Part shown: one piece after another, positions 1,053 through 51,835 of the stretch
Layout: each line of letters begins with the position of its first letter
Numbering within the stretch: position 1 is the first letter of the stretch
Source: a virus
IMG/VR virus record: IMGVR_UViG_3300034143_000002
Length of the DNA stretch: 57,778 nucleotides
Strand: one strand, 5' to 3'
Notes under the pieces: model-generated
Database searches by the model: none
What the model was told of the DNA's origin: nothing
Seen by the model: only the letters and a program-made list of their open reading frames with translations
Position numbers and translations under genes: made by a program

Positions 1053-1065
1053 CTTGTATCTCCTA

Positions 1066-8920: not shown

Positions 8921-9203
8921 GGAATGGGATTTAATTATTTGGAGGGGTTCCGCGTTGACGCACCCCGCCAGAATGAGCATAGAATAATCAAGGATTTAAT
9001 TACTTAGAGGGTGCAACGCCCCTGCCCAAATGAATTATATAGAGCCGAATCGCATACCTTTTTGGAGGGTGTTACGCCGCAACACCTACAGCCCCGAAAC
9101 GAGCATACACGTCTCAGGAATTTAATTTTTAGAGGGTGTGAGACATTGCCCTCACGCATCTAGGGTAGGGTGTTTTGGAGTCTAATTTTTGGAGGGTGTG
9201 AGT
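8921..9203. repeat. Five degenerate tandem units (58-67 bp period) carrying the ~26-nt module-boundary motif
   Basis: Cores ATTTAATT-N-TTNGAGGGTG at ~8927-8951, 8992-9016, 9059-9075 (partial), 9117-9143 and 9179-9203. GAGGG(T/G) anchors at 8942, 9007, 9065, 9132 and 9192. Confidence 0.8.
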
Positions 9204-9458
9204 ATGAAGAATAGAAAAACGATCATCGCAGGTATGTTCCTGCTTTTGCTGTTTGTAGTCGGATGGACTGGATACGGGCAGAAGGCGGCAAGGCAGCAAT
9301 GGGAATATAAAATGCTGTACTTGCCGGATGAATCAAGCGAAGAGGCGAGCCTGAAAACTTTGAACACACTAGGCGCGGAAGGGTGGGAGGTTATCGAGTT
9401 TCACCAAAGGGGAATTGACACCTTGAGCGGTCAATATCTTTTCAAACGATCAAAATAA
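9204..9458 (+). CDS. Membrane-anchored small protein, DUF4177-like (moron-like)
   Basis: GGAGG RBS plus ATG 9204. N-terminal TM/signal IIAGMFLLLLFVVGW. WEYKMLYL...LNTLGAEGWEVIEF...YLFKR resembles DUF4177. Own hairpin downstream. Confidence 0.55.
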   Translation: MKNRKTIIAGMFLLLLFVVGWTGYGQKAARQQWEYKMLYLPDESSEEASLKTLNTLGAEGWEVIEFHQRGIDTLSGQYLFKRSK

Positions 9459-9460
9459 AT

Positions 9461-9486
9461 AAGGGGCAAAGTTCCCTCTGCCCCTT
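9461..9486 (+). terminator. Stem-loop after DUF4177-like gene
   Basis: AAGGGGCA-N10-TGCCCCTT, 8-bp perfect stem 3 nt after the stop; no clear U tract. Confidence 0.45.
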
Positions 9487-9560
9487 CCCTGCCTCGCCTT
9501 GCCGTGCTAGCCAAGCCTTACCTCGCCTGACCAAGCCAAGCCTAACCTCGCCATGCCTTG
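9482..9560 (-). repeat. Pentanucleotide-periodic array a (CNNGG units on minus strand)
   Basis: Minus strand reads caagg catgg cgagg ttagg cttgg cttgg tcagg cgagg taagg cttgg | ctag | cacgg caagg cgagg caggg aaggg. 15/15 units end in GG. Confidence 0.9.
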
Positions 9561-9566
9561 TAAAGC

Positions 9567-9782
9567 TCAACGCTTTTTCTTGCTTGCATCTTCGGTGGGC
9601 CGTCCGCCGCGATCTGGTATGAACGCTTCAACCTCGCCCCTCTTCACGAAACGGCGTCCAGCAATATCAACCGTGCTTAGCTTTGTCTGCCTAATTAAGT
9701 GATTGATGGCTTGGCGCGTTACTCCGCGAAGCTGTGCGGCCTGAGCGACTGTGAGTAGTTCGTCGGGGTCAATCTTTACCAT
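9567..9782 (-). CDS. HTH DNA-binding protein (excisionase/MerR-type)
   Basis: LLTVAQAAQLRGVTRQAINHLIRQTKL...IAGRRFVKRGEVEAF. Divergent from the cassette promoter. Confidence 0.6.
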   Translation of the reverse strand: MVKIDPDELLTVAQAAQLRGVTRQAINHLIRQTKLSTVDIAGRRFVKRGEVEAFIPDRGGRPTEDASKKKR

Positions 9783-9839
9783 GCCTCAGAGTATACACAA
9801 CCACTTTCCGCTTGACAAGAAATAAAACTAACTTACCTC

Positions 9840-9868
9840 TTGACAAACGGAAAGGGGTTCTTTATAAT
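9840..9868 (+). promoter_or_regulatory. Consensus sigma70-type promoter
   Basis: TTGACA (9840-9845), 17-nt spacer, TATAAT (9863-9868). A second TTGACA lies at ~9812-9817. Confidence 0.6.
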
Positions 9869-9906
9869 CCTTTTGTCAGTTGGAAAACAGATAAGGAGCA
9901 AATCAG

Positions 9907-10053
9907 ATGAACAGCACAACCAACAAAACGATCATCACGATTTCAACGACGGACGCCAAGCGGGTCAACAAATACGCCATCAAAAAGAGGGTAGAGCGAG
10001 ACGCCTTCGGACGCGCTCAGGTTGCGGAGTACGTGAGGGGTATTCGCCTGTAG
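9907..10053 (+). CDS. Small RHH-like regulator candidate (48 aa, below ORF-track cutoff)
   Basis: AGGAG 8 nt before ATG 9907. MNSTTNKTIITISTTDAKRVNKYAIKKRVERDAFGRAQVAEYVRGIRL has a beta-strand-then-helices pattern. Stop TAG at 10051-10053. Confidence 0.4.
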   Translation: MNSTTNKTIITISTTDAKRVNKYAIKKRVERDAFGRAQVAEYVRGIRL

Positions 10054-10062
10054 AAGCGAAAC

Positions 10063-10097
10063 GGGACAGGCGAGCGTTTGGGCCGCTCGCCTGTCCC
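10063..10097 (+). terminator. Strong GC hairpin (attenuator/terminator candidate)
   Basis: GGGACAGGCGAGCG-TTTGGGC-CGCTCGCCTGTCCC, 14-bp perfect stem between the RHH-like ORF and 10131. Confidence 0.55.
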
Positions 10098-10130
10098 TTC
10101 ACACCATTTACCACTTGAGAGGGGAAAACG

Positions 10131-10508
10131 ATGCGACAAAAGTATAACACGAAAGCGTTGCCACCGCCGGAAAGTCGGCCAGTCAGCGAATTCATCAGAG
10201 AGCCCGTCAAGGAATGGTCAACGCTTCCCATCACAGAAGAACGGGCGCAGGAACTCGTTGACCTGCTCACCGATGACCTCAACGACCACACGACGGACGC
10301 CATCATTGAGTTAATAGCGGGCATCATGCCGCAAGCGAGCCCTGACGATGAAACCGAGAGTGACAGGTGGCAAAGATTCATCGCGGGCTCTGCGGCCATC
10401 CTTCACGCCTTCCGCCACTCGTCGCGCTGTCAAAACGCGCTTGGCGACCACATCATCCACTTGAAAATCGGTAAGATTAAAGAGAAGGAAAGCGAGGGCG
10501 AGCGATGA
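10131..10508 (+). CDS. Acidic hypothetical protein A (125 aa)
   Basis: Paralogous to the next ORF (I[TS]..[ER]A.EL...D..ND.....A.I.L..GIM). ATGA overlap with it. Confidence 0.6.
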   Translation: MRQKYNTKALPPPESRPVSEFIREPVKEWSTLPITEERAQELVDLLTDDLNDHTTDAIIELIAGIMPQASPDDETESDRWQRFIAGSAAILHAFRHSSRCQNALGDHIIHLKIGKIKEKESEGER

Positions 10509-10879
10509 AAGGAGACGAAGGGAAGCTTGACGCGCTCTGGCGTATGCAGCAGATAAGGGACAAAAACGACGACTATAAAGCCATTTCGAGGGATGAAGCC
10601 GCCGAACTCGCTGAAACCATCGTTGACTATGATAACGACGTGAGAGCCCACGCCCTTATCACGCTGCTTAACGGCATCATGTGCGTTGTATTTTCAGGGG
10701 AAGGCGGGCGCTCACTCGCGGAAGATTTGGTATGGTGCGCCACGCGCCGCGCCTACACGCTGTCGCTGCATTGTAATTACTCGCTTTCTGAATTCGCCAG
10801 CTTAGACCCTAAGAACGCACGCGACAAGCGCGTGCTGGAACACGAATACGACGAGGACGAAAAGAAGGAGCAACAATAA
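10505..10879 (+). CDS. Acidic hypothetical protein B (124 aa), paralog of A
   Basis: Shared motif with 10131..10508. TAATG overlap with the 207-aa gene. Confidence 0.6.
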   Translation: MKGDEGKLDALWRMQQIRDKNDDYKAISRDEAAELAETIVDYDNDVRAHALITLLNGIMCVVFSGEGGRSLAEDLVWCATRRAYTLSLHCNYSLSEFASLDPKNARDKRVLEHEYDEDEKKEQQ

Positions 10880-11502
10880 TGTCAAATATAGTCAAAGCAA
10901 AAGTCACGATCAAAGGCGTCCGCCCGCTCTTACTCCATCACTTCGGGCCTGACGCTCTACCGCTTGAGAAGCAGGAGAAAACAGGAGTCGCCGGAAACGA
11001 CCCCGAAGAATGGCGCAAGACCGCGCTCGTCACGAAAGACGGCCAACTCTACCTAGAGCCCACATACATCTTTGCCTCTATCAGAGACGGCGCGAAGTAC
11101 ACGAAGAAAGGTAAGGGCTCAATTCAATCCACAGTGGCGGCAACGCTTCAAGTCTTGGATAACGCTGTATTGATTGACCGCCACTTTCCCGGCTTCCCTA
11201 ATGGTCATGCTTTTGATCTGGCGACGGCAGAGCCGCCGCCGCGAGACAAGGACGCGCCTGTTTACTTGGACGTTCAATCTGTGAGGAATCCGACAACCAA
11301 AGGGCGCAACGTGCGCTACCGTGTCGGAGCGTCAGTGGGATGGTCTTGCTCGTTTACGATTCTCTTTGATAAGACCATCGTTGACCGAAACACCATGCAA
11401 ACGGTGCTAGGCGACGCGGGCGTGCTTGTCGGCGTCGCTGACGGGCGCTCAATCGGCTTCGGGCGCTTCACGGTTGAGAGTTTTGAAGAGATTAAGTCTT
11501 GA
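10879..11502 (+). CDS. Hypothetical 207-aa protein with RAMP-like features
   Basis: KVTIKGVRPLLLHHFG, LEPTYIFASIRDGAKY, and the C-terminal helix plus G-rich loop VLGDAGVLVGVADGRSIGFGRFTV resemble RAMP (Cas7/Csm3-type) motifs. Unverified. Confidence 0.6.
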   Translation: MSNIVKAKVTIKGVRPLLLHHFGPDALPLEKQEKTGVAGNDPEEWRKTALVTKDGQLYLEPTYIFASIRDGAKYTKKGKGSIQSTVAATLQVLDNAVLIDRHFPGFPNGHAFDLATAEPPPRDKDAPVYLDVQSVRNPTTKGRNVRYRVGASVGWSCSFTILFDKTIVDRNTMQTVLGDAGVLVGVADGRSIGFGRFTVESFEEIKS

Positions 11503-11507
11503 GTTTT

Positions 11508-11606
11508 CCCGGCACGGCAGGGCTTGGACGGGCAGGGCATGGGTTGACTTGGAATGGCCCGGCGAGGCTTGTCAGGGCTAGGTGAGGCATGGAAGGCAAG
11601 GCAAGG
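11508..11606 (+). repeat. Pentanucleotide-periodic array b (CNNGG units)
   Basis: cccgg cacgg caggg cttgg acggg caggg catgg gttga cttgg aatgg cccgg cgagg cttgt caggg ctagg tgagg catgg | aagg | caagg caagg. 15/17 in-phase units end in GG. Confidence 0.9.
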
Positions 11607-11611
11607 TTCTT

Positions 11612-11914
11612 ATGCCAAAAAAGAGACAGCCAATAGAAATCTGGCGAGAGACGCGGCGCAGGGTGTTAGAGCGCGACGGCTATAAATGCGTCCGGCCATC
11701 CTGCGGCGCGCCCCTCACGGAAAAGACCGCACACATTGACCACATCGAATCAGGTAAAAATGCGACCAACGAAATGAGCAACTTGCGCTCGCTATGTCGG
11801 CGCTGCCATGTGCTGCGCGCCGACCCCCGGCACAGAGGCATGATTGCTGGCGCTCTCAAGGCCGGAATAATCGGCCCTGACTGGCGCTCGCAAGTTTGGG
11901 ATGATGATTCTTGA
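11612..11914 (+). CDS. HNH endonuclease
   Basis: RRRVLERDGYKCV..C......HIDHI.....N...NLRSLCRRCH. ORF-track GTG 11582 lies inside array b, so ATG 11612 is preferred. Confidence 0.8.
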   Translation: MPKKRQPIEIWRETRRRVLERDGYKCVRPSCGAPLTEKTAHIDHIESGKNATNEMSNLRSLCRRCHVLRADPRHRGMIAGALKAGIIGPDWRSQVWDDDS

Positions 11915-23944: not shown

Positions 23945-24205
23945 TTATGCCTCCGCTATGCGAACCCAACCCCTCTCGCGCATCGCCTCTTTATCCAGTC
24001 GCTCAAACACGCTCAAGGAATCATACGATGATGGCACACCGATAATTACTAGATCGGTGATCCCCTGCTCGCCAAAGTGCTCTTTGAGTTGCGCCGCCAC
24101 ATTCTCAAATTGAGAGAGAGGGAGGGTGAGGTGAATTATCAGCACGTCTCCGCTTTTGACAGAGATTGCTTCATTGATGATGACGTTTATTTTCTCTTCA
24201 GCCAT
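23945..24205 (-). CDS. Hypothetical protein (86 aa)
   Basis: 8-nt overlap with the terminase large subunit end. Confidence 0.45.
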   Translation of the reverse strand: MAEEKINVIINEAISVKSGDVLIIHLTLPLSQFENVAAQLKEHFGEQGITDLVIIGVPSSYDSLSVFERLDKEAMRERGWVRIAEA

Positions 24206-26009
24206 TTTTCTGCACCCTCGCCAGGATTGCCTTCATGCCAGTCTGCGACGGCGCGCTCACGCCGCTCGTGCTGCCGACCGTAATCACGACGTTGTTGAAA
24301 AGGAAGTCCGGCGAGATCGCCAGCACGAAGCCGTCGCCGTCGTCGGGGGAGCGATGTTTACGTTTTCTGAACCCCTCAACTTTAGGCTCTAAAATCTTGC
24401 AGTCCTTCCCGGATTTGTTGCGCCACTTGAATTCGCGCTCACAGAGATCTTCTTCCAGCGCCGGCGGCGGCGAGACCACCCTCAGAGTCTTCAGCGTCTC
24501 CGCTGCCTCCGCATACATTTCGGTGACGAGGTTGTAGAATTTATCGCTATAGGATGAGCCGCCGAAGTGAACTTCATAGACCTGATAATCCGGGAATGCC
24601 TCAATGAGCTCGTCGTCCGTTTTCAATCCGTCAATAACGCCACTGCCGTAGCCGGCGTCGACGCGGATGTGCAAGGAAGTGACTCCCTCCTCTTTGAGAG
24701 CGAGAGCGACTTTCCTGATCGCCGCGATGTAGTCCGGTGTCTCCTGTTGCAGTAAATCACACGCGCACCATGCCAGGTTATTCCAATTCACGTAGACTGT
24801 TCCCTTATCCGAGCCGAAACGCGCAGCGTCGACACCAATGCGCGCTCTCGTCCTATCTCCCTCGACATGTGGACGCTTGGTGGCCGCTTCGTAGCGCCCG
24901 ACAGGAATTAACGTCTTGTCCGAGCTGTTAGGCGGCGTGATGCCGAGCACGTCCGTCATGAAGCGCGAGTTCGGCAGAAAGATCGTGCCCGCCGGACAGG
25001 GCACGCCCGCAACAATCACGTCATACGGAAGCTCGAACGTGAAATCGTCCTCCGAATGCTCATTGACGATCTGACAATCCTTCTCAAGCTTCCTTTCAAC
25101 GAAGTCGCGCTTAACCGCTCCCGGGATGATCTCTTTGCCTGCAACCACGTTCGGGTGATAAAGCGTTGAAACACGGAATGATTGAACGTAGGAGCGCGCC
25201 TTGCACCGGTGGAACATCGAGGCGCGACTCTTCGGGTTGGCGAACATGAGGACGAGCGAGTTGCCGCCCGATGTCATCGTCTCGATGGAGTCGAAGACGG
25301 TATCGCCGACGCCGTCGGCCTCGTCAATCAGGAACAACTGAAAAGCTTCGTGCTTTCCCTTGGTGCGCTCCTCTCCCTTGCCCAGGCCCTCGCTCACGGT
25401 ACGGTGCGCGGCGAAATGCTTGGCCGTGATCTTAATCTCTTTTTCGAGGATGCGGCCTGGAAGTCCCTTGCCCTCGCGGTCGCCTCGTATCTCCGACCAC
25501 AGGCCGAAGCGCGCCTGGTCGCCGCCGGGAGCGAAAGTGAAGATCGCTGATGGGGTAAAGCAGTCTAGGAACCAATTCAAATCGCCGGACGCGGTTTTAG
25601 TTTTGCCAATACCGTTGCCTGATTCAACGCGAATCCAGTTTTTAATAATTTCGCCGGGCTTCCAACAGGTCAACTCCTCTTCCGATAATTCACCCTTTTC
25701 AAACTTATCCTTCTCTTCCTGCTGGCGCATGACGCGCGCGCACGCTTCAAGGATTTCGACTTGTCCCGGGTGATCGGCATCCATCCCTTTCCAGGGCGTC
25801 CAGCCCAGGAACTTCGGGATGTATTCGACAGGCTTGAATCTATATGGAAGGAAACGGTCGGTCTGCGCAGCGGGCCCGTAGAGACGCAACGCGGACTGTG
25901 CCGCCGCAGTTCTTTCCGGGCCGGGCGGCATCAGTGCTATGCGTTGCCTCACTGCATCCGGGCTAAGCATCAGAAGTAACAGGAGTAGGAAGCTCATCAC
26001 GAGAGACAC
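24198..26009 (-). CDS. terL: Terminase large subunit
   Basis: Walker A ESGNGIGKTKTAS, Walker B FQLFLIDEADGV, nuclease-sized C-terminal half. The true start may be the internal Met (MPPGPERT, ~25931). Confidence 0.9.
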   Translation of the reverse strand: MSLVMSFLLLLLLMLSPDAVRQRIALMPPGPERTAAAQSALRLYGPAAQTDRFLPYRFKPVEYIPKFLGWTPWKGMDADHPGQVEILEACARVMRQQEEKDKFEKGELSEEELTCWKPGEIIKNWIRVESGNGIGKTKTASGDLNWFLDCFTPSAIFTFAPGGDQARFGLWSEIRGDREGKGLPGRILEKEIKITAKHFAAHRTVSEGLGKGEERTKGKHEAFQLFLIDEADGVGDTVFDSIETMTSGGNSLVLMFANPKSRASMFHRCKARSYVQSFRVSTLYHPNVVAGKEIIPGAVKRDFVERKLEKDCQIVNEHSEDDFTFELPYDVIVAGVPCPAGTIFLPNSRFMTDVLGITPPNSSDKTLIPVGRYEAATKRPHVEGDRTRARIGVDAARFGSDKGTVYVNWNNLAWCACDLLQQETPDYIAAIRKVALALKEEGVTSLHIRVDAGYGSGVIDGLKTDDELIEAFPDYQVYEVHFGGSSYSDKFYNLVTEMYAEAAETLKTLRVVSPPPALEEDLCEREFKWRNKSGKDCKILEPKVEGFRKRKHRSPDDGDGFVLAISPDFLFNNVVITVGSTSGVSAPSQTGMKAILARVQKNG

Positions 26010-26484
26010 CCAATAACTTTGAAAGCAATTCTAAATCGTCGACTTTATGGTCAACTTTCTGGCGGCGCCCACCCGTCTCTTTCGCGAGGTCGTCAAGGAC
26101 GCCTCTGAAAGCCTGCACCTCCGGGGAGTTGAATACTTCAAACTCGACTTTCTTTTGGTTCTTACCCGTGCCGATGATCTTGACATCATCAACGTACAGC
26201 ATGTTTTCGCCGAGCAGTTCTTCTTCCATCTTTTCGGCGAGCATAGTGAGTGCTTCGACGCGGCGCTCTACCAAAGCAAATCCCCGTTTGAGCGCGCTCT
26301 GTTCCGACGCCTGCTCCAACTCCTCAATCTTTACTCCGAGTCGTTTGCGGTAGAAATCCACCTGCTGGCGAGAGACCTGGTAAGACGGACGGAACTTCTT
26401 CGCGGCTGCGTTGATCTCATCAGTGCGCATCCCTGCGGAGACTAATTCTTTCAGGTGCTCTTTTTGTTTTAGCCCGAGCCTCAT
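25963..26484 (-). CDS. Terminase small subunit candidate (173 aa)
   Basis: Directly upstream of terL. N-terminal HTH-like segment and coiled coil; synteny call. Confidence 0.5.
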   Translation of the reverse strand: MRLGLKQKEHLKELVSAGMRTDEINAAAKKFRPSYQVSRQQVDFYRKRLGVKIEELEQASEQSALKRGFALVERRVEALTMLAEKMEEELLGENMLYVDDVKIIGTGKNQKKVEFEVFNSPEVQAFRGVLDDLAKETGGRRQKVDHKVDDLELLSKLLGVSRDELPTPVTSDA

Positions 26485-27007
26485 GTTTGCGTACTTCCAG
26501 ATCGTTCTCTTTTAACTCTGCTTCCAGTTCAACGATCAGCTGCTGTATCATCCGGCGCTTCCGTTCGTCACCCTTCATCAGCTTATTGATGAAATTCTCC
26601 AGCCCCTCGTTCCAGACGCCATGTCTTTCGACAATGTCGTCAAAGTCCTCTTCGTCATGCCCGACTGTAATCAGGTCGTCTAACTCGTCCTCGTAGTCGC
26701 AGTGCTTCAGCTCGTGATCTACTAAAGCGACCTTCCACTTCAACGGGCGCAAATCCCACTTCGGTTTGGTAATCTCGATGCAGAAGAAAGATTCCGGCTC
26801 GCCCTCAGAGCCCGGTGTTGCGAGATGGGCCATGAGCCCCGTCACTTTGCGCGCCCGCCCGGCAAGCTCCCTTCCCATTTGCTTCGGCGGTTCACTCACG
26901 AAGACGTACTCGATGCGTGCGCCGGCGAGCTGCGGGTGAAACAAATCAATCAGCCTCTGAGCGATGTATCTGGCCTCGTGTGCGGGCCCATATTCTTTTC
27001 TGGGCAT
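26420..27007 (-). CDS. Putative phage metallopeptidase (HExxH)
   Basis: VALVDHELKHC (HELKH) followed by an acidic segment, in SprT/phage-metallopeptidase style. Confidence 0.55.
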   Translation of the reverse strand: MPRKEYGPAHEARYIAQRLIDLFHPQLAGARIEYVFVSEPPKQMGRELAGRARKVTGLMAHLATPGSEGEPESFFCIEITKPKWDLRPLKWKVALVDHELKHCDYEDELDDLITVGHDEEDFDDIVERHGVWNEGLENFINKLMKGDERKRRMIQQLIVELEAELKENDLEVRKHEARAKTKRAPERISLRRDAH

Positions 27008-27031
27008 CTTGATTCAAAGAGCGTTAAATTT

Positions 27032-27217
27032 TCACTGCTGATTGCTGACCAGTTCGACCTGTCCATGCGTGATAAAGAACTGTGCCCCGCAATCGTGAGG
27101 GCAAATGACAGAAGTGTCAGCCGACCAAGTGCCATCCTCGTGCTCCGTGATCTCGTGATCGTCGAGTGACATCGAACCGCCGCAACGTGGACAAGGGATC
27201 GTCTTCATTTCACCCAC
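27032..27217 (-). CDS. Small zinc-ribbon protein (61 aa)
   Basis: CPRCGG...CPHDCG. Confidence 0.5.
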   Translation of the reverse strand: MGEMKTIPCPRCGGSMSLDDHEITEHEDGTWSADTSVICPHDCGAQFFITHGQVELVSNQQ

Positions 27218-27272
27218 CCTCCATAACCGGAGTAGGAGATAACGATTAAGAAAATTTTAAATAACCAGCTTC

Positions 27273-27401
27273 TCACGACTTCTGCTCCCTCTGCGCCCGC
27301 TCCTTGTAGTAGTTATCGAGCAGTTTCCCGATAACTAAACTCAGGATGCCGATCAGAGCGACGATGACACTGGCTACACCGCTATCTAATTTCCTGCGCA
27401 T
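27273..27401 (-). CDS. Very small single-TM protein candidate (42 aa, below ORF-track cutoff)
   Basis: Manual translation: MRRKLDSGVASVIVALIGILSLVIGKLLDNYYKERAQREQKS. Overlaps the HD-GYP stop by 16 nt. Confidence 0.3.
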   Translation of the reverse strand: MRRKLDSGVASVIVALIGILSLVIGKLLDNYYKERAQREQKS

Positions 27402-28027
27402 TGAAGCTTCTCCTCTGGAATTCTGAAGAACGCTTGAACTACTCTTGGGTCGAACTGGCTCCCACTACAGCGCGTCAGCGCCGCGGCTGCCGCCTGATAG
27501 CCTAAACCTGCGCGATAGCATCGATCATTCGTAATGGCGTCATAAGCGTCGGCCACAGCCACGACGCGCGCTCCAAGGGTGATCCCTGCGCCTGCAAGGC
27601 CGCACGGGTACCCGTATCCGTCAAATCGCTCGTGATGCTGGCCGACGATATCAACGATATGGACTGGCATCTCCAGCTCGGCGAGGGCCGCTGTGCCCTC
27701 GATGACATGTGCTCGCATGTGCATGCGCTCGATGGCCGTTAATGCGGCTTCCTTCTTGAGCACAGAGTCTTTCGTGCAAATCTTGCCGATGTCGTGAAGC
27801 TGTGCGCCGTAATAGAGCGCGAGCAAAGCGCCCCGCTCAAGCTTCAACTCTCTGCCGATAAGCACAGAGACACGCGCGACCCTCACGGAGTGATCGCGCG
27901 TGCCTCTGTCTTTCAGTTTGAGAGCGACGAGCAGGGCAGCCGTTGCCGCTCGCAGTTCGTTAGCGTTCACGCCCTCTCTTCTGCTCCTGTAAAAGCTTGT
28001 CCCGAATCTTCTCGACGTTTTGATCAA
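27386..28027 (-). CDS. Stand-alone HD-GYP domain phosphodiesterase
   Basis: QLHDIGK plus HHERFDGYGYP motifs intact; no receiver or sensor domain. An alternative GTG start at 27970 (after GAGAGGG) would give an 11-nt overlap with the upstream gene. Confidence 0.85.
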   Translation of the reverse strand: MIKTSRRFGTSFYRSRREGVNANELRAATAALLVALKLKDRGTRDHSVRVARVSVLIGRELKLERGALLALYYGAQLHDIGKICTKDSVLKKEAALTAIERMHMRAHVIEGTAALAELEMPVHIVDIVGQHHERFDGYGYPCGLAGAGITLGARVVAVADAYDAITNDRCYRAGLGYQAAAAALTRCSGSQFDPRVVQAFFRIPEEKLQCAGN

Positions 28028-28253
28028 TGCGCTCGACCGTTTTCCATCGCTCTTCTAATAATTCGCGCGTGACAGTCTTTTCCTGTGCACGCTCGACCGC
28101 ATCAATCCTGTCAGAGGTTCGAGCCTGCGAAACCCAGACGGAGAGAGCTCCGCCGATGGTGGAGAGAATTAGTGCAGCTATGATTGTTCCCGCGATCTGC
28201 GAGAATGAGAGATGCCCTGATGCAGGCGTTCTGCCCTGTACCACCTCTGACAT
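27960..28253 (-). CDS. N-terminal TM plus coiled-coil protein (97 aa), i-spanin/holin-accessory-like
   Basis: IAGTIIAALILSTIGGALSVWV, then a charged helical tail. Confidence 0.5.
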   Translation of the reverse strand: MSEVVQGRTPASGHLSFSQIAGTIIAALILSTIGGALSVWVSQARTSDRIDAVERAQEKTVTRELLEERWKTVERIDQNVEKIRDKLLQEQKRGRER

Positions 28254-28262
28254 GCGCGCTCC

Positions 28263-28670
28263 TTACTGCTGCGGAAACGCCTGATTCAAAGCGTCGCGCA
28301 ACGGGACGAGGAAGCGGGCGAACTTCGGACGCCTGATCTTGTCTGCGACCAGCGCTGTCACGGTGGAGATGGCCTGATTGATGAGCAGGTCCTGCCAGCC
28401 GCTGAACACACTCGAAGATGCTGCCGCACTCAGGGCCTGCACGTTCGAACCGCCGGGAAGCGCCAGCGCCCAGTTCAGCAGATTGCCTGTCTTGACTTTG
28501 TCTTTCTGTCCCCAGAACAGGGAGTAAAGCGCCATCAGAGCGCCGATGAACTGGATGACGTAGGTGACGAAACCTTCCTGCTGCTCAGGAGTGATCTTGC
28601 CTTTTGTGGCGAGAAAGGTGCCGATGAGTCCGAGTGCCCAGCGAAGTGCGGATGCGATTTGTGGATTCAT
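28263..28670 (-). CDS. Holin-like membrane protein (135 aa)
   Basis: GGAGG 5 nt before ATG 28670. MNPQIASALRWALGLIGTFLATKG...VIQFIGALMALYSLFWGQKDK gives 2 TM segments. Confidence 0.5.
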   Translation of the reverse strand: MNPQIASALRWALGLIGTFLATKGKITPEQQEGFVTYVIQFIGALMALYSLFWGQKDKVKTGNLLNWALALPGGSNVQALSAAASSSVFSGWQDLLINQAISTVTALVADKIRRPKFARFLVPLRDALNQAFPQQ

Positions 28671-28820
28671 ATAGCCTCCGAATAAAAGATTTGGCAGGCG
28701 CAAGGGGCTTGAAGAGGCACACAGGACGACCTGAGTCCAAAATGTGATCGCCAACGCTTTGCGGTGCGGCAGCTCCATTCCGAGAGCGCCTGCTTGAGGC
28801 CAGAGACTAGACCAAAGAAG

Positions 28821-28846
28821 TAATTAATTTTTTGGGGGTGTGAGTA
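28821..28846. promoter_or_regulatory. Module-boundary motif copy
   Basis: TAATTAATTTTTTGGGGGTGTGAGTA, ending 1 nt before the stop of 28847..29377. Confidence 0.6.
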
Positions 28847-29377
28847 TTAGGGAAGAACCATCGAAGACGGAGATTTCTGCTCCGTCCAGCAGTAGACCAT
28901 CTCAAATGCCCCGCGTGAGATATCCGGCCTTTGTCGCCGGCGCTCATCGATCATCCGGGTCGTAAGCATGCCTGCAAGTATCGCCTCTACATCATGCTCG
29001 GGAAGCTTCGTCTCTTCACAGAGGTCTTCGAGCGTAAGGCAGCTATAAGCCTTGAATGCTTGTGTAATGGCTTCAAGGTCTCTGTCTACCGTGCGCGTCC
29101 CTCGATTGCGAACGCTGCCAATCGCTTCGTTCAGAATATCGGCATAACCCGGATGCTTGAGTGCCAGCGCGAGCAACTCTCGTCCGAGGTCGAGCGATTC
29201 CTGATGCTGATCATTATCTCCCGCCCGCTTCCTGCACGGCTTGCATTGATTCTGCCGGCCGTCCTTTTGTTTACGGTTCGCCTGAAAACTATCAAGCGAC
29301 TTCTCCTGCCCGCATTTCGAGCAGCGTTTGAGCGTAATATTTGACGGAAGCACTTCGAGGGATAGGGATTGCATCAT
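28847..29377 (-). CDS. Zinc-finger plus wHTH-like regulator candidate (176 aa)
   Basis: CSKCGQEKSLDSF.....DGRQNQCKPCRK, then a helical C-terminal domain. Confidence 0.5.
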   Translation of the reverse strand: MMQSLSLEVLPSNITLKRCSKCGQEKSLDSFQANRKQKDGRQNQCKPCRKRAGDNDQHQESLDLGRELLALALKHPGYADILNEAIGSVRNRGTRTVDRDLEAITQAFKAYSCLTLEDLCEETKLPEHDVEAILAGMLTTRMIDERRRQRPDISRGAFEMVYCWTEQKSPSSMVLP

Positions 29378-29422
29378 AAATCTATAGTGCCTGCTCCTGA
29401 TGAGGAGGTGCTGAATTGAGTC

Positions 29423-29959
29423 TTACGCGCGCCGCCGCGCCCGCCTGGCCTGTTCCCGCTCGTATTCCAGCCGGGCAGCTTCAGAGCGAATCTGCCTCAG
29501 CTTGACGATATATTGCTCGAAAGCACCACGTGGAAGGAGAGAAAGCTGTAATTTCAACTCCGTGGAGACATCCGTCTGATCCCGTGCGATCGTAATCAGC
29601 GCGCCACTCGCCTCCAGTTCCGGAAGACGCGCCTCCTGCGATGGTCGAAGCTTCCCGTCTCTGTCCTTACATTCAATCGCCCAGAACCGCCCCGTGACCG
29701 GCACAAGGGCCGAGATGTCTGGCCAGCCGTCGGGATAGCAGAGTTGGCGCGGACCTTTGACCGTCTGAAGGGTCATCGAGTCTGTAACCTCGGCGATCAC
29801 GTTCGAACGGAGTAGATATTTCAAGATCACAGAGCGGATTTTCGATTCCGGGACATCCAGCGCGCGCAGATCCGATGGAACAGCGCGAGTCCTTCGCCTG
29901 TCCTCCGGAAATAGCCCGCCGCTGAAAGTGCGCCCCGTCATCCCTTGCTGCTTATACAT
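29423..29959 (-). CDS. VRR-NUC domain nuclease
   Basis: DGWPDISALVPVTGRFWAIECKDRDGKLRPSQEARLPELEASGA (PD-(D/E)xK, VRR-NUC pattern). Confidence 0.8.
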   Translation of the reverse strand: MYKQQGMTGRTFSGGLFPEDRRRTRAVPSDLRALDVPESKIRSVILKYLLRSNVIAEVTDSMTLQTVKGPRQLCYPDGWPDISALVPVTGRFWAIECKDRDGKLRPSQEARLPELEASGALITIARDQTDVSTELKLQLSLLPRGAFEQYIVKLRQIRSEAARLEYEREQARRARRRA

Positions 29960-29968
29960 AAGCGGGGA

Positions 29969-29995
29969 GATTTATTTTTTGAGCCTGTGAGTAAG
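29969..29995. promoter_or_regulatory. Module-boundary motif copy (10 nt upstream of VRR-NUC start)
   Basis: GATTTATTTTTTGAGCCTGTGAGTAAG. Confidence 0.55.
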
Positions 29996-30142
29996 CAGGC
30001 CGGGGCATGCGAGGCGAACCTGACTTAACCAAAAGAAACAGAGCAAATAACAGGGTTAGGCGGGAAGTTCCATACCACTATAGGAATGGAGCATCAGAAC
30101 TCCTGCGATGCCAGCGTTCAATCAAGTATTGATGAGAATTCA

Positions 30143-30352
30143 TTAAAAGATTCTACGATCTCCTTCTGATATAGGGCGGAATGCGATATACCAGTCTAAA
30201 GAATTTGAACCGCTCTCATAAACACATGCCCCCTTGATTCGAGCAAAATCTATCCAGCGAGCAATTGTTGCTTCAATACTGTTGCACTTCCTTGGAGGAT
30301 CTTCGTCAAACTGCTCGCAGATAATCCTTATGGTTTCAACTGGATTGTCCAT
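30143..30352 (-). CDS. Hypothetical protein (69 aa)
   Basis: Internal Met of ORF 30143..30601 (MDNPVETIRI...). The upstream part of that ORF overlaps the better 30336..30608 ORF. Confidence 0.4.
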   Translation of the reverse strand: MDNPVETIRIICEQFDEDPPRKCNSIEATIARWIDFARIKGACVYESGSNSLDWYIAFRPISEGDRRIF

Positions 30353-31597: not shown

Positions 31598-32968
31598 TTA
31601 TGCTGCGCGCTCGTCCTCTTCCGCCACTGACCGCGGGGCTTGTTGAGATTCCCGTGCAGCGAGCAGCGCGGCTGAAGGATTTTGTTTATGATCAACCAGT
31701 ATCTTCTGGACTGTGGACATGGCCACCTCTCGATCACCCAGTGCATCGGCAAAACTATTCGTCAGGCTGGCCTCAGCCTGCGGGTAAAAACGCTTGAACA
31801 GACGCTCACATTGTTCGCGCGTGGCATGCTTGAATTCGATCTTCACATCCACACGCCCATCTCGGATCAGTCGACTATTTAGGCGGTCGAGATGATTCGT
31901 CGTCATAAAGACCATGCAGCCCTCCCGGGCCGTAATGCCATCGAGAGCCTGTAATAATCCTTGAAAGGTCACGCTGTGGTATGAATCCGCGGAGATAACC
32001 CGCTCACCGCTGACAGCAGCATCCACTTCTTCGATCAGGACTATGCTGCCTGGAGGTACGGCGATCAACAATTCATTGAGCCGCTCATCGGTCATCATCG
32101 TCCCGCCCACATTGAGAATATAGAGGGGGATATTGAACTCATGAGCGATGGCTTCGATGATCGAAGTCTTGCCCGAGCCCATGACGCCGTGCAGCAGATA
32201 GCCGCGCCGGTAAGGAATGCCGAGCGAGCCGTACCATTGGCGTGATTCAAGGAACTCCCGCACGTCCTCAGTCAGTTTCTCCAGGATAGAGCTGGGGAAG
32301 ACGAGGCTTGCGAAGGTGCGCCGGTTGATCTTTGCCAGCCGGACCCATTGGCCGTAGTTTGAACTGTATATCTCGCAGCGGCCCCGCGTGGCATCAATCG
32401 TGCATTGGCGCGCCGCCTCTAAAAGCTCGCGCATCCGCTCCTGGCGACGACCGAACATGCGGATATGAAAATATTCAATCACGGGCCCGCGCAGAGCTTC
32501 CTGAGTGGCCTCCATCGCATCCTTGCGTACTCGCCAGAGCCAGACTCGGCGGCCACGGAATCGGAAAATATGATGTCCGGGCGCTGGGGTGAAGAGGATG
32601 CGTGGGACAATGCGTTGCGTGGAATTGTGTGGCGTGTGTTGATTGAGCGCCCGTTCCTCGCTGTGCTTCATCTGGGCCGTGAGCGACCGACAGCGTAGGC
32701 TATAAGGATGCTTATCCAAAAACAGGGCGACACTGTCAAAGAGCGGATCGTTATTTATGATGTCAACTTGAATGATTATCTGGCGCTTGAGCCATGACCA
32801 AAACGCCCTCGGTGTGTTCCGACTCAAGGCGACGAGGCTGGTAGTGATGATGAGTAGAATGCCGCCTGAGACGATCTGGCTTTCAAGTGTCTGGCGGAGA
32901 TGCGCAATAAGTTGCTGCCACATTTCAAATTTCCTCGGAGGAGCTTGACCGCTCTCTAAATAAAGCAC
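31598..32968 (-). CDS. Membrane-anchored AAA+ ATPase, BCS1-like
   Basis: TM GGILLIITTSLVAL. YRRGYLLHGVMGSGKTS (Walker A), IVLIEEVDAA (Walker B), MVFMTTNHLDRLNSRLIRDGRVDVKIEF (sensor/Arg finger region). Start overlaps the helicase stop (TAGTG). Confidence 0.8.
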   Translation of the reverse strand: MLYLESGQAPPRKFEMWQQLIAHLRQTLESQIVSGGILLIITTSLVALSRNTPRAFWSWLKRQIIIQVDIINNDPLFDSVALFLDKHPYSLRCRSLTAQMKHSEERALNQHTPHNSTQRIVPRILFTPAPGHHIFRFRGRRVWLWRVRKDAMEATQEALRGPVIEYFHIRMFGRRQERMRELLEAARQCTIDATRGRCEIYSSNYGQWVRLAKINRRTFASLVFPSSILEKLTEDVREFLESRQWYGSLGIPYRRGYLLHGVMGSGKTSIIEAIAHEFNIPLYILNVGGTMMTDERLNELLIAVPPGSIVLIEEVDAAVSGERVISADSYHSVTFQGLLQALDGITAREGCMVFMTTNHLDRLNSRLIRDGRVDVKIEFKHATREQCERLFKRFYPQAEASLTNSFADALGDREVAMSTVQKILVDHKQNPSAALLAARESQQAPRSVAEEDERAA

Positions 32969-36032: not shown

Positions 36033-37127
36033 TTAGTTGATACGGCTCCTGAGCTGAGCCTTCCAACCCCCGCCGCGCTTGGTGCGCTTGCGACGCTTGG
36101 ATTTGCCACTGGGCGGGCGAAACGGCACTCGCATCTTTTTGGCTGCACGCTTGCGCGCGGCATCTCCGCCCGAGCGGATGTAGCCTTGCGTCGTCTGCAC
36201 GTAGACGTGGCCGAGAAAGTCCCGCACGAGCTCAATGTCTTTGCTCTCCTTATGAAGGTGTGTGGCGGCGCTGCGCCTCAGGTCGTGCGCGGAGAAGTGA
36301 GCACAGCCCGCTTCCTCACCACGGCGCTGCAAAGTTTTGTAGATGGCTGCGGCACTCAGCCCCCTCTCTGTGTGAATGCCACCGTGCCTGTCTACGGGAC
36401 ACAGCAATGGGCCGGGCTCGTTCCCTCTCAGACGAAGCCAGAGGTTGATGCACCGGCGCGCCCCCCCATCCAGGAAGTGAACCGTGCGATCCCGTTCGCC
36501 TTTGCCGTGAACTCTCAATTGATGCGAGCGGGGCGTCCAGTCCGAGAGGTGCAAACGAATACTCTCGCAGCACCGCAGGCCGCCACCGTAAAGGATGGCC
36601 AGAAGAGCCGCATCGCGCGCGCCGGCAGCGGTCGCGCTCGCGCGGTCACAGATGCGAAAGAGAGCACTGATCTCAGAGACGGAGAGTGCGCGTCCGGGCC
36701 TGACCAAGTGATTGCCTCTCACTCCTTTGACATCCCGGATTTCTTCCAGTTCCTGAACCGACATCTGGTTGAGACGCCAGGCGCGGCGCGCCACCTCTTT
36801 GAGAGCCGAAAGCGTCGAGTTGATAACGCTCGCAGCATACTCTTGGAGCAGGAGCCGGTTGCGCACGTGCTCGACGGCCGGAGCACGCAGCGCTCGCCAG
36901 TCGTAGTCCATGATGGTTGCCTGATCCTCGCCCACGAGGATGCGCGCGGCCCTCTCCAGGTTGACCCGTTGACCGCGCTTGCCGCCTTCGGCCAAGTAGT
37001 CGAGGTAGGCGTTGCAGGGGGCGAAAGGATGGTTCGAGGGAAGTCCCGCGGGGCTCGAATGGACGAGGTGCAGCACGCCCATCTGGGAATCTTTTTCGAG
37101 GGTGATGTGGCCTGTTTTAACGCTCAT
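36033..37127 (-). CDS. int: Tyrosine integrase/recombinase
   Basis: LRCCESIRL (Arg), HGKGERDRTV, FSAHDLRRSAATHL (HxxR), FLGHVYVQTTQGY (His..Tyr). Confidence 0.9.
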   Translation of the reverse strand: MSVKTGHITLEKDSQMGVLHLVHSSPAGLPSNHPFAPCNAYLDYLAEGGKRGQRVNLERAARILVGEDQATIMDYDWRALRAPAVEHVRNRLLLQEYAASVINSTLSALKEVARRAWRLNQMSVQELEEIRDVKGVRGNHLVRPGRALSVSEISALFRICDRASATAAGARDAALLAILYGGGLRCCESIRLHLSDWTPRSHQLRVHGKGERDRTVHFLDGGARRCINLWLRLRGNEPGPLLCPVDRHGGIHTERGLSAAAIYKTLQRRGEEAGCAHFSAHDLRRSAATHLHKESKDIELVRDFLGHVYVQTTQGYIRSGGDAARKRAAKKMRVPFRPPSGKSKRRKRTKRGGGWKAQLRSRIN

Positions 37128-46476: not shown

Positions 46477-46680
46477 ATGACCGCGAGACAATTTGCTGCC
46501 GAGATGAACGTTAACTACAGAACAGCTCTCAACTGGCTCGACGCGGGGCTGGTGCCTGACGCTGAATACATTTCATCTCCGATTGGATCTTACTGGGAGA
46601 TTCCTGCAACAGCACTGAAGATGGAACGCCCGAAGCCTGGGCCAAAGAGGAAAATCAAACAACCGGAGGCTGCACAATGA
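46477..46680 (+). CDS. Small HTH protein (67 aa), first gene of par operon
   Basis: [31 protein letters not shown] overlap with parA. Confidence 0.55.
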
Positions 46681-47477
46681 AAGTGATCGCCATCGCTAAT
46701 CAAAAAGGAGGCGTCGGAAAAACCACAACGGCGGTCAACCTCGCTGCGGCTCTGCAATCACAGGGGCGAAAGGTGCTGGTGCTCGACCTTGATCCCCAGG
46801 CGACAGCCACACGCTTTCTTCTCGACCGCTATGGCACAGACGGGGAGACGGTTTACGACGTACTGATGCACGGCAAGCCTTTGTCAGAGGTTATTCTCAA
46901 GACTCCCGTCGGCATTCCCGTCGCTCCCAGCAACTTCAATCTGGCGTCCCTCGACCTTGACCTCAATAGCGCCTTAAACCGCGAGCACAGGCTGGCGGAT
47001 GCATTGGAAGAGGTCACAGGCTTCGACTATGCCCTGATTGATTGTCCGACCTTTCTGGGCTTCGCCAACATCAACGCATTCGCCGCCGCTCAGAGTGTGC
47101 TGATCCCCATAGAGTGCGCGCCGGAATCATGGGAAGCGGTTCCCTATCTGATGAATACCCTCAGAAAGATCATCGTCCAGCTCAAACATCCATTAACGAT
47201 CTTTGCGCTGCCGACTTTTCTTGAACGGACGAATATTGCACGGGATATCCACACGGAGATTTGTGCGCACTACGAGGCGTACACTCTTTCGCCGATCAAT
47301 AAGAACGTCCGTCTGAAAGAAGCGTTCAACGCGCGCAAGCCGATTATTCAATACGATCCGGCAGCATCAGGAACAATGGACTATCTCAGGGCTGCAAAGG
47401 AGATCATCAGTGGACACGAAACCGAAACGGAGATACGGCGCAATCAGGAAGGGCGAGGAAACAGCGGCAGGAACTAA
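46677..47477 (+). CDS. parA: ParA/Soj-type partition ATPase
   Basis: [25 protein letters not shown] (deviant Walker A), [15 protein letters not shown]. Confidence 0.9.
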
Positions 47478-50111: not shown

Positions 50112-50468
50112 GTGGCTAAATATGGCCGCCCCCGTCTGCCCGAAAGCGAGCGCAGAGAAGCGGGAGCCCTTCACATCCGGCTCAACAAGGAAGAGCGACA
50201 GATCATCGAAGAGAAAGCGTCTTCTGCCGGCGTGACGCCCCACGAGTGGGCGCGCGCGGCGTCGCTGGAGCGCGACCCTCCGCCGCGCAAAATCATCCCC
50301 GAACTGAATCGCCAAGCTTGGCTGGAAATGGCCCGGCTGATGGCCACCTTGAACGGCGCGATCTGGCGCTTCCAGCCCGGTGGGGAAGAGTCCGTCAGGG
50401 AGGCCGTGGAGGCTGTCCGGCAGGAGTTGGCCGCGGTCAGAAATCAGCTGATCGGAGGCTCATCGTGA
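50112..50468 (+). CDS. MobC-like relaxosome accessory protein
   Basis: GTG start. GALHIRLNKEERQIIEEKASSAGVTPHEWARAASL (RHH-type MobC pattern). GTGA overlap with the relaxase. Confidence 0.65.
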   Translation: MAKYGRPRLPESERREAGALHIRLNKEERQIIEEKASSAGVTPHEWARAASLERDPPPRKIIPELNRQAWLEMARLMATLNGAIWRFQPGGEESVREAVEAVRQELAAVRNQLIGGSS

Positions 50469-51835
50469 TCGGCAAAATAACGGGGGGCGCGAGCTTCGCA
50501 GGCGCTCTGGAATACCTGACGAAGATCAAAGAGCCGAAGCTGCCTGAAGAGAAGGAACCGTACCGGCAGAAGCTCAAGGAGGCGAAGCTGTCGCCGGGCG
50601 AGCACGCGCCGCCTTTCGAGGCCGGAGAGCGCCACCGGGTGATCGGCGGCAACATGTCGGGGCTGACCAGGGAGGAGCTTCAGAAAGAGTTCGAGGCCAT
50701 CTGCGGCCAGCGGCCAGACATAGAGAAACCGGTTCATCACGTCTCTCTGAGCGCGGGCGAGAACGACCGCCTGAGCGTCGAGCAGTGGCAGGAGATTAGC
50801 GAACGATACATCCATGAGATGGGATTCAAGGATGCCCCATACGTCGTCATCCAGCACCGTGACGGGGCCCACGATCACGTCCATATCCTGACCTCGCGCG
50901 TGGATGTCAACGGCCATGTCGTCAGTGACTGGCAGAGCAAGCAGCGGGCGGAAAAGGTGCTGCGCGGCGTCGAGCGCGACTACGGGCTGGAGCAGACGAA
51001 GTCGAGCACGGAAGTCGAGCGCGCGGCCCCGAAGCGCGGCGAGATTGAAGTCTTCAACCGGACACGCGAGCTATCGGCCAGGATGGAAATGCAGAGCCAT
51101 GTCGACCTTGCCCTGCAAGATAATCCTTCCGCCACGGCGTTCATCGAGCGCTTGCAGAATTCCGGCATCGAGGTCGTCCCTTACGTGCAGGACTCCGGCC
51201 TCATGACCGGTATCAGCTTTCGGAAAGGGAAGGAGCTGATGAAAGGTTCCGACCTCGGGCGCGGCTTCTCCTGGCCTGCGCTTCAACGGCGCGGGCTGGA
51301 CTACCAGCCGGAGCGGGATCGCCCGGCGGTCGAAGCCGCCAGGGAACGCTCGGCGCTCGAGGAGCACGCGCAGCCAACTGGCCCGTCCACTGTGGAGCGA
51401 AACTTCGGCGACGCGGTGAGAGATATAGGTGAGCGGACAGGGCAATACCTGATCGATCAGGCCAACCCGTTGAGACCTCTCGAAAATCAGGTGAGAGCCA
51501 TAGAGGTGACGGGCCGTGCCCTCGTCGACGGCGTGACGGCTCTCAGGGACACGCTCTCCAGACAGTCTGACCCGGCGCAGCCTCAGAGGGCGGCAGGGCC
51601 TGAGCCTGACGGTCGAGACTCGATCCAACGATTGCAGCAGACCACTGGGCTGGAGACGGCCAGAGATGGCCAGGGCGCGCTCGAACACCTCAACGAGATC
51701 GCCGGGCCGCAGCGCCCGGACTCCGCTGAGCCCTCTCTCGAAGACTCACTGACCCGGACACCCGGCATGACCCCTTCACAGGAGATTGCAAACGAGGAAC
51801 ACACCATCGAACAGGCAATCGAATTTATACTCTAA
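50465..51835 (+). CDS. Mobilization relaxase (MobA/VirD2 family)
   Basis: GGAGG 6 nt before GTG 50465. VIGKITGGASFAGALEYL N-terminus. HHVSLS, and the His triad HRDGAHDHVHIL. Confidence 0.85.
   Translation: MIGKITGGASFAGALEYLTKIKEPKLPEEKEPYRQKLKEAKLSPGEHAPPFEAGERHRVIGGNMSGLTREELQKEFEAICGQRPDIEKPVHHVSLSAGENDRLSVEQWQEISERYIHEMGFKDAPYVVIQHRDGAHDHVHILTSRVDVNGHVVSDWQSKQRAEKVLRGVERDYGLEQTKSSTEVERAAPKRGEIEVFNRTRELSARMEMQSHVDLALQDNPSATAFIERLQNSGIEVVPYVQDSGLMTGISFRKGKELMKGSDLGRGFSWPALQRRGLDYQPERDRPAVEAARERSALEEHAQPTGPSTVERNFGDAVRDIGERTGQYLIDQANPLRPLENQVRAIEVTGRALVDGVTALRDTLSRQSDPAQPQRAAGPEPDGRDSIQRLQQTTGLETARDGQGALEHLNEIAGPQRPDSAEPSLEDSLTRTPGMTPSQEIANEEHTIEQAIEFIL

Follow-up and report, generated by a model that had tools for sequence, protein, structure and literature searches.

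A predicted stand-alone HD-GYP phosphodiesterase as optional cargo of a lysis-like cassette in a temperate phage of soil Acidobacteria

The virus record IMGVR_UViG_3300034143_000002 of IMG/VR is a stretch of 57,778 nucleotides, here called the window, whose numbering is used throughout unless a locus identifier (Lxxx) is given. It belongs to a temperate, siphophage-like phage of soil Acidobacteria, and at positions 27273-28670 (-) four tightly packed genes with ribosome-binding sites lie just upstream of the terminase genes: they encode a holin, a protein with a transmembrane segment and a coiled coil (TMCC), an HD-GYP phosphodiesterase, and a 42-aa membrane peptide (s42). A first-pass annotation had described this row of four genes, and all of them are indeed present on the minus strand. 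Given their ribosome-binding sites, the 11-nt and 16-nt overlaps on either side of the HD-GYP gene, and a consensus promoter and terminator scan of 25800-30200 that returned no match on the coding (minus) strand, the four genes look like one translationally coupled unit. The HD-GYP gene is coupled to both of its neighbours, so that its product would be synthesised along with the proteins for lysis and packaging. We argue below that this is an ordinary HD-GYP protein in an unusual, recurrent phage context, where it is carried as optional cargo of a lysis-like cassette.

The HD-GYP gene occupies 27386..27970 (-) and encodes 194 aa from a GTG codon at 27970, which overlaps the TMCC stop by 11 nt; this start agrees with the N-termini of homologues and with a public gene call (P0001, 194 aa, 100% identical). 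The length of 213 aa given by the first-pass annotation is that of the longest open reading frame (ORF) only, from a TTG at 28027, whereas the rest of its description, a stand-alone protein with HDIGK and HHERFDGYGYP motifs and no sensor domain, stands. The protein lacks a transmembrane segment, a signal peptide and any second domain. It matches PF13487 (HD_5) over profile positions 7-170 of 170 with an E-value of 2.6e-28 (99.3 bits against a cut-off of 27.2) and PF01966 (HD) with an E-value of 1e-16, and its nearest NCBIfam model is a cyclic di-GMP (c-di-GMP) phosphodiesterase family. In two alignments, one of 9 phage-clade sequences and one of 60 broader homologues, the invariant or nearly invariant residues are H27, H59-D60, K63, H88, H112-H113-E114, D117-G118, G120-Y121-P122, D141, R150 and Y152. 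A profile search of the PDB matched V-cGAP3, PmGH, PA4781 and DvhD, and the metal ligands and GYP motif align with those of PmGH, PA4781 and V-cGAP3. An AlphaFold2 (AF2) model built from the 60-sequence alignment is a single compact helical domain with a mean pLDDT of 97.4, for which Foldseek returned template-modelling (TM) scores of 0.84-0.88 to 4r8z, 9rbz and 4mcw (PA4781, c-di-GMP-bound DvhD, and PmGH), with E-values down to 6e-12.

A related prophage is found on a 294-354-kb contig of the Pyrinomonadaceae (Acidobacteriota) metagenome-assembled genome (MAG) GCA_036389675.1 (loci L001 and L073), where the holin is 90%, the TMCC 62% and the HD-GYP protein 93% identical to that of the window. 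The presence of so close a prophage names Pyrinomonadaceae as the likely host of the window phage. Between the window and the prophage copy, the ratio of nonsynonymous to synonymous substitution rates (dN/dS) of the HD-GYP gene is 0.087, a value that indicates strong purifying selection. From its conserved residues and its modelled fold, the protein looks active, that is, like a catalytically competent enzyme predicted to be a cyclic-dinucleotide phosphodiesterase.

Two features of the sequence bear on which dinucleotide it would cut. Guanine recognition in this family has been attributed to an Rxx(K/R) motif (R314/K317 in PmGH), while cGAMP-selective HD-GYPs, which act on cyclic GMP-AMP (cGAMP), carry RxxQ or RxxN (10.1101/600031). 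The selectivity motif of the window protein is R150-C-Y-R153, with R or K at that position in 9/9 phage-clade sequences, and this favours c-di-GMP as the substrate. It has also been reported that a Glu or Asp at the position of PmGH E185 coordinates a third metal and that its presence goes together with hydrolysis all the way to GMP (10.1101/2021.11.05.467447); the window protein has G23 at this position, which assigns it to the binuclear rather than the trinuclear class. Because of the RxxR motif and this glycine, the most likely reaction is predicted to be the conversion of 3'3'-c-di-GMP to pGpG by a binuclear enzyme. The protein resembles the cellular binuclear HD-GYPs PA4781 (4R8Z) and DvhD (9RBZ) in its domain, its fold (TM scores of 0.86-0.88), its metal ligands and GYP loop, its Rxx(K/R) motif, and the lack of a Glu at the third-metal position. 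Unlike them, it is devoid of sensor domains such as REC, PAS or GAF, and its gene belongs to a phage, forms part of a late lysis operon, and is followed by a coupled gene for a 42-aa transmembrane peptide. Stand-alone HD-GYPs have been described as rare (Galperin and Chou, 10.1101/2021.11.05.467447).

The same family also contains enzymes that degrade cGAMP, such as V-cGAP1-3 of V. cholerae (5Z7C) and PmxA of M. xanthus, and this kinship bears on an explanation that we regard as possible although rather doubtful. In it, the HD-GYP protein would counter host defence by destroying 3'3'-cGAMP, the signal of cyclic-oligonucleotide-based anti-phage signalling systems (CBASS), or the c-di-GMP of CdnE/TIR-STING CBASS, so that the effectors would stay silent until the virions are finished. 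V-cGAP3 is among the best sequence matches of the window protein and ranks first by summed PDB profile score (193 bits for three matched stretches), but when the C-terminal HD-GYP domain is counted by itself it reaches 138 bits, a little under PmGH (148) and PA4781 (142), and the structural match to it (TM score 0.68) is poorer than those to the c-di-GMP enzymes. Likewise, the window protein does not have the RxxQ/N signature of the cGAMP-selective enzymes of the PmxA type.

Downstream of the HD-GYP gene, s42 (27273..27401, -) is a single-pass transmembrane peptide of 42 aa with a transmembrane core at residues 9-27 and a basic C-terminal tail. Its ATG at 27401 has an AGGAG 9 nt upstream, and its reading frame shares 16 nt with the end of the HD-GYP gene. 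The peptide is 88% identical in the prophage copy (L001), where dN/dS is 0.061, and 44% identical to its counterpart s44 in L010. Taken with the ribosome-binding site and the overlap, this conservation indicates that s42 is a real gene, as the first-pass annotation had supposed when it listed a small single-pass ORF at the end of the row.

The two genes upstream fit a role in lysis. The holin (28263..28670, -; 135 aa), of the Pam3 gp28 family, starts at an ATG at 28670 preceded by GGAGG, and its first 55 residues match PF23987 (Phage_holin_10) with an E-value of 8e-10 and 39 bits, above the cut-off of 27. Its hydrophobic helices are a strong transmembrane segment (residues 33-53) and a weaker one at the N-terminus, so that the earlier description of a holin-like protein is upheld with one strong and one weak helix, and these are followed by a conserved C-terminal domain of about 80 aa. 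The dN/dS against the prophage copy is 0.12, and the protein is 41% identical in L010; searches of IMG/VR and of a set of 5.8 billion proteins for holin relatives returned only the protein itself and its prophage copy. The TMCC (27960..28253, -; 97 aa), recognised by its hydropathy and heptad pattern, begins at an ATG (28253) nine bases past the holin TAA that is preceded by AAGGAG-N6. Its transmembrane core lies at residues 23-41, and 28 of its 53 C-terminal residues are charged, with hydrophobic residues at a spacing of 3-4, which bears out the transmembrane and coiled-coil architecture that had been proposed for it; its dN/dS against the prophage copy is 0.29. A TMCC profile run against 1.84 billion representative proteins found about 51 clusters, all of 79-128 aa and none fused to an enzyme, while the TMCC alignment A5 found no match in JGI metagenomes and, among GTDB genomes, only the Pyrinomonadaceae MAG. 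A frameshift fusion of TMCC and HD-GYP was considered and rejected, as no slippery site was seen and L003 has a plain ATGA overlap.

The architecture of the TMCC fits that of an i-spanin, and the charges flanking its transmembrane segment, which are ambiguous for topology, lean towards a cytoplasmic N-terminus. No spanin family in Pfam, PHROGs or NCBIfam matched it, and no o-spanin lipoprotein, whether embedded or adjacent, was found when the surroundings of the window cassette were searched for one. In the relatives L003, L080, L083 and L077, a helical lipoprotein adjoins the TMCC. These lipoproteins, of 120-195 aa, are encoded directly upstream of it (L003:9167-9640, L083:1536-2006, L080:4559-4987 and L077:~1373-1960); homology is seen between those of L003 and L083 (E 6e-18), and LFASAC and FTSAC are among their lipoboxes. 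Lipoprotein and TMCC may thus form an o-/i-spanin-like pair in reversed gene order.

Close homologues of the HD-GYP protein (47-93% identity) were all found on phage contigs and placed just upstream of terminase genes. For example, a 47-kb phage (L003-L006/L011) whose large terminase is 79% identical to that of the window and whose other modules differ encodes a lipoprotein-like protein (p157), a TMCC, an HD-GYP protein and a 39-aa transmembrane peptide. Two loci with a GpA-type terminase carry a holin homologue, TMCC, HD-GYP and s44 (L010) or a transmembrane protein and HD-GYP (L012), TMCC and HD-GYP accompany a Terminase_6 and an SPP1 portal in L008/L009, and in L007, a DNA-polymerase-A phage, the HD-GYP gene follows a tail fibre gene. 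TMCC cassettes upstream of the terminase were found in about 11 related phage lineages, and about half of them (the window, L001/L073, L003-6, L010 and L008/9) have an HD-GYP gene directly after the TMCC gene, which is missing from L077, L080/81, L082, L083, L078 and L079. In these latter cassettes, the TMCC gene is followed by a small transmembrane ORF in L082 and L083, by an unrelated 208-aa protein with a 4-nt overlap in L079, and by other small genes in L078; L080/L081 encode a 2-transmembrane holin-like protein, a 142-aa lipoprotein (lipobox LFASAC), the TMCC and a 48-aa transmembrane peptide. The most telling case is L077, a phage of the same type as L010 with a regulator, a small transmembrane protein plus lipoprotein, and a TMCC: here, a gap of 100 nt separates the TMCC gene from the virion gene that follows s44 in L010, and HD-GYP and s44 (~710 bp) are absent together, so that the two have been gained or lost jointly.

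By these comparisons, about half of the TMCC lineages carry an HD-GYP gene after TMCC, and the other half have nothing at that site or a different gene. The site is therefore one of variable cargo, and HD-GYP with its small transmembrane partner is facultative cargo at the distal end. The core cassette would then comprise the holin, in some cases a lipoprotein, the TMCC and a small transmembrane peptide, plausibly a holin with an o-/i-spanin-like pair in reversed order. As these phages are highly mosaic and the product is 40-50% identical to many cellular HD-GYP domains, the gene might be a passenger recently captured from a bacterium and of no benefit to the phage. We find this very improbable, however, considering the strong purifying selection on the gene, its persistence at one site in no fewer than five phage lineages, which have three terminase types among them, and the fact that the prophage of the MAG regained an intact ORF after an island of 8 kb had entered the 5' end of the HD-GYP gene.

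This island of about 8 kb (L073:10350-16722, continuing into L001:110-1856) was inserted at the equivalent of window position 27893/27882 and carries genes for DUF7694, DUF4062, a pentapeptide-TIR protein, an HTH_17 protein and the TnpB of an IS605 element. After its insertion, the HD-GYP ORF was restored with a diverged N-terminus, and a remnant of 26 codons was left behind the TMCC gene. DUF7694, which was considered as an alternative occupant of the cargo site, was discarded as part of this island.

The first-pass annotation had also remarked that no endolysin could be recognised in the window and that the HD-GYP gene was oddly placed where one would be expected. The first remark was confirmed by Pfam and PHROGs scans of essentially all window ORFs of at least 55 aa, in which no lysozyme, amidase, transglycosylase or cell-wall peptidase was found; most alternative ORFs of 80 aa or more were likewise scanned with Pfam, three bins of ORFs antisense to known genes excepted. 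The second remark lost its force, for the six lineages of relatives that lack HD-GYP have no endolysin at that site either, and none was found in any TMCC cassette examined, with or without HD-GYP. The possibility that the HD-GYP protein is a non-canonical lysis effector replacing the endolysin, which we rate as the least credible of those considered, draws on its being a soluble protein of about 22 kDa encoded beside a holin in a genome without a detectable muralytic enzyme, and on an unrelated contig (L046) where the gene order is holin-like, HD-GYP, transmembrane/coiled-coil. Yet peptidoglycan contains no phosphodiester bond for such an enzyme to cleave, both the active site and the motif for nucleotide recognition belong to the cyclic-dinucleotide type of enzyme, the HD-GYP protein itself contains no muralytic catalytic domain, and cassettes without it are equally without an endolysin, which removes it as an endolysin stand-in. 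As judged from these comparisons, it is neither a muralytic enzyme nor an endolysin replacement nor a core lysis component.

The missing endolysin is, then, a separate puzzle and a trait that these phages share. No endolysin was seen either in the lysis-like cassettes of about 10 other contigs from related phages, as judged from the cassette neighbourhoods, the window being the only complete genome among them. A putative phage metallopeptidase with a HELKH motif (26420..27007, -; PF18894, E 2.5e-17) was considered as a cryptic lysin and found no support: it has no PDB relative, its single-sequence AF2 model (pLDDT 40.7) is unusable, and it is not conserved at this site in L003/L010. The lack of an endolysin across these phages suggests that their muralytic enzyme is of a family not yet described or that its gene lies far from that of the holin.

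A single-protein scan of IMG/VR with the HD-GYP protein found nothing, and a profile-guided scan returned 62 HD-GYP loci, mostly multi-domain proteins of 320-370 aa that may be host-like. Thirteen of the 62 are stand-alone, in one of two contexts: a membrane cassette before the terminase, or replication modules after the gene for single-stranded DNA-binding protein (L028, L050 and L055). In the unrelated contig L046 (5551-7001), genes for a 3-transmembrane holin-like protein, an HD-GYP protein and a transmembrane/coiled-coil protein come directly before those for TerS, TerL and the portal, with no Pfam endolysin within 6 kb. In L020, L030, L034 and L037, also unrelated, a REC-HD-GYP gene is followed by one for a transmembrane/coiled-coil protein with overlaps of 1-4 nt.

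Such pairs in unrelated contigs could mean that the HD-GYP protein forms a membrane complex with TMCC and/or s42 and so couples the c-di-GMP state of the host to holin triggering, in the manner of an antiholin. The coupling of the window gene on both sides to small membrane proteins would fit, and a c-di-GMP riboswitch on phage PhiCD119 provides a precedent (PMC10333796). We nonetheless consider a role in lysis timing improbable: the excess of coupled small transmembrane neighbours is weak (12/58 IMG/VR loci against 46/416 control genes, p = 0.023), the partners outside the window family are not homologous to TMCC, TMCC occurs without HD-GYP in six lineages and is never fused to it, and the fully conserved catalytic site points to an enzyme rather than a sensor. 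The broader proposition that HD-GYP always pairs with a transmembrane/coiled-coil protein was rejected on the same weak excess, the lack of homology of the partners and the lack of fusions. An Rfam scan of the window found no c-di-GMP riboswitch and no other family.

Among known phages, relatives are few. A megablast of the region against GenBank phages gave no match, and tblastn against 50,697 GenBank phage records gave 15 matches, all to unannotated gut-metagenome entries named 'Bacteriophage sp.' and none to a cultured phage. BFVD contains two significant structural relatives, one of which is gp79 of Bacillus phage G, also a phage-borne HD-GYP or HD-type phosphodiesterase, to which the window protein is only 22% identical (TM score 0.66). 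No characterised phage HD-GYP was found in the literature searched. The HD-GYPs of jumbo phages have been predicted to be counter-nucleotide (counter-CBASS/CRISPR) enzymes (Iyer et al. 2021, PMC7824862), so the idea that phage HD-GYPs act against signals is not new; in contrast to those, the window gene belongs to a temperate phage with a genome of ~58 kb and lies in a lysis operon rather than in a set of defence and counter-defence genes.

Beyond this earlier prediction, several observations fit the destruction of immune signals. The presence and absence of HD-GYP in close relatives is what one sees with accessory anti-defence genes, and some other viral contigs (L028, L050 and L055) have a stand-alone HD-GYP in an early or replication module. 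L083, with the same TMCC cassette, encodes a 74-aa Acb2/Tad1-hairpin protein (L083:395-619; PF24729, E 2e-10) 1.4 kb upstream of that cassette, and a sponge of this kind implies that the phage group meets cyclic-nucleotide immunity. On the other hand, known anti-CBASS genes are usually early, and the window gene is placed in the late operon and coupled to lysis genes. No homologue of Acb1, Apyc1 or Acb2 was found in the window, the Acb2/Tad1 hairpin being seen only in L083. If the window enzyme did act against defence, it would share a class of target molecules with Acb1 (a 2H-phosphoesterase), Apyc1 (metallo-beta-lactamase fold) and the Acb2/Tad1 sponges, but it has an HD fold, is of an unrelated family, and matches no such Pfam entry. 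That HD-GYP and s42 might constitute a new class of enzymatic counter-defence, made late and erasing the c-di-GMP or 3'3'-cGAMP signals of STING or CBASS systems during virion assembly, strikes us as an unlikely but serious proposal.

The reading that we favour, with moderate confidence and on the strength of sequence and structural model, is that the HD-GYP protein would linearise the c-di-GMP of the host. Produced late, together with the lysis and packaging proteins, it would convert 3'3'-c-di-GMP to pGpG in the cytoplasm, possibly while held at the membrane by s42. Envelope outputs that depend on c-di-GMP would then collapse, namely matrix, adhesins or pili, and the receptor used by the phage itself may be among them; this collapse would take place in the productively infected cell, before holin-triggered release. 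Several points weigh against this reading. A signalling enzyme expressed late would scarcely have time to take effect except in a long latent period, as is plausible for slow-growing Acidobacteria, and the present/absent pattern among close relatives is also a typical signature of anti-defence genes. The RxxR motif, moreover, expresses a preference for c-di-GMP and is not proof of it: V-cGAP3 also has RxxR, and V-cGAP1 and V-cGAP3, both with this motif, cut 3'3'-cGAMP too. Finally, the tethering by s42 is pure conjecture.

The genes that surround the unit resemble, in their order, the late operon of lambdoid phages. In lambda, this order is resolvase, Q, S holin, R endolysin, Rz/Rz1 spanins, Nu1 and A. 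In the window, the replication and recombination block upstream of the late operon ends with a gene for a VRR-NUC-type nuclease or resolvase (29423..29959, -; weak PF08774 match; phrog_5702, Holliday junction resolvase, E 7.6e-10) whose counterpart in L003/L004 is syntenic and shows 70% identity. The gene immediately before that of the holin encodes a Zn-ribbon and winged-helix protein (28847..29377, -), with matches to Zn-ribbon PHROGs and a winged helix-turn-helix of the PCI/HTH_9/TFIIE kind at residues 102-154. Its homologues precede the cassette in L003, L012, L073 and L077, and by analogy of position to lambda Q, it is a candidate late-gene regulator. On the other side of the unit, a Lar-like small Zn-ribbon protein (27032..27217, -; PF14354 at E 2.5e-5, below the cut-off; 67% identical in L001), which lies outside the lysis/HD-GYP unit, and the metallopeptidase described above precede a putative small terminase subunit (25963..26484, -), so assigned by its position and by 53-59% identity to the genes before TerL in L001/L003 and without a family match. 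The large terminase subunit (24198..26009, -; phrog_2, E 1.5e-18) comes after it, followed by the portal. The order of nuclease, regulator-like protein, holin, transmembrane/coiled-coil protein and terminase subunits thus mirrors that of lambda, with the differences that the window has neither an R-type endolysin nor a lipoprotein partner, and that HD-GYP and s42 sit after the transmembrane/coiled-coil gene.

An exact terminal overlap of 127 bp (positions 1-127 and 57652-57778) indicates that the window is probably a complete genome, a circular assembly of ~57.65 kb. The overlap falls in a repetitive tail-fibre gene, and the same 30-mers recur at 56983, so that the join could be a repeat artefact; it joins the two halves, 3-1181 (-) and 53685-57677 (-), of one gene for a tail fibre of ~1,700 aa rich in NAT/TAT-type repeats. 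Pfam and PHROGs scans of the window also identified genes for a portal, capsid, tape measure, tail fibres, a repressor and a tyrosine integrase (36033-37127, -), together with ParA (46677-47477, +) and a MobA/VirD2 relaxase (50246-51835, +); ParA, relaxase and integrase in one tailed-phage genome amount to a phage-plasmid-like or hybrid lifestyle.

Three further features of the genome may be mentioned. A BCS1-like AAA ATPase (31598-32968, -; BCS1_N, AAA and lid domains; phrog_7485, E 8e-76), an unusual gene for a phage, adjoins a helicase in the replication region. Directly after the giant tail-fibre gene, and masked by a longer ORF on the opposite strand, lies the gene for a lipoprotein (53051-53491, -) with the signal LVLGC and a tRNA_anti-like oligonucleotide-binding (OB) fold (PF12869, E 8e-22), which is a candidate superinfection-exclusion protein. 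Lastly, a plus-strand islet at 9189-11914, which includes 10879-11502 (+), lies within the minus-strand structural module, and its contents include a DUF4177 membrane protein, a phrog_4652 protein and an HNH endonuclease.

Phages are regarded as rarely carrying components of c-di-GMP signalling, and yet an intact HD-GYP gene is found in five or more lineages of phages from an uncultured soil phylum, each time built into the late/lysis operon and, it appears, subject to strong purifying selection. In addition, the absence of a recognisable endolysin from these phages of Pyrinomonadaceae points to an undescribed muralytic family, and the unusual pair of lipoprotein and transmembrane/coiled-coil protein may be a new spanin type. 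If the HD-GYP protein proved to cut immune cyclic dinucleotides, it would represent a new family of anti-CBASS/STING enzymes besides Acb1 and Apyc1; if, as we favour, it depletes the c-di-GMP of the host, it would offer a clean example of a phage that switches off the biofilm and adhesion programme of its host at release.

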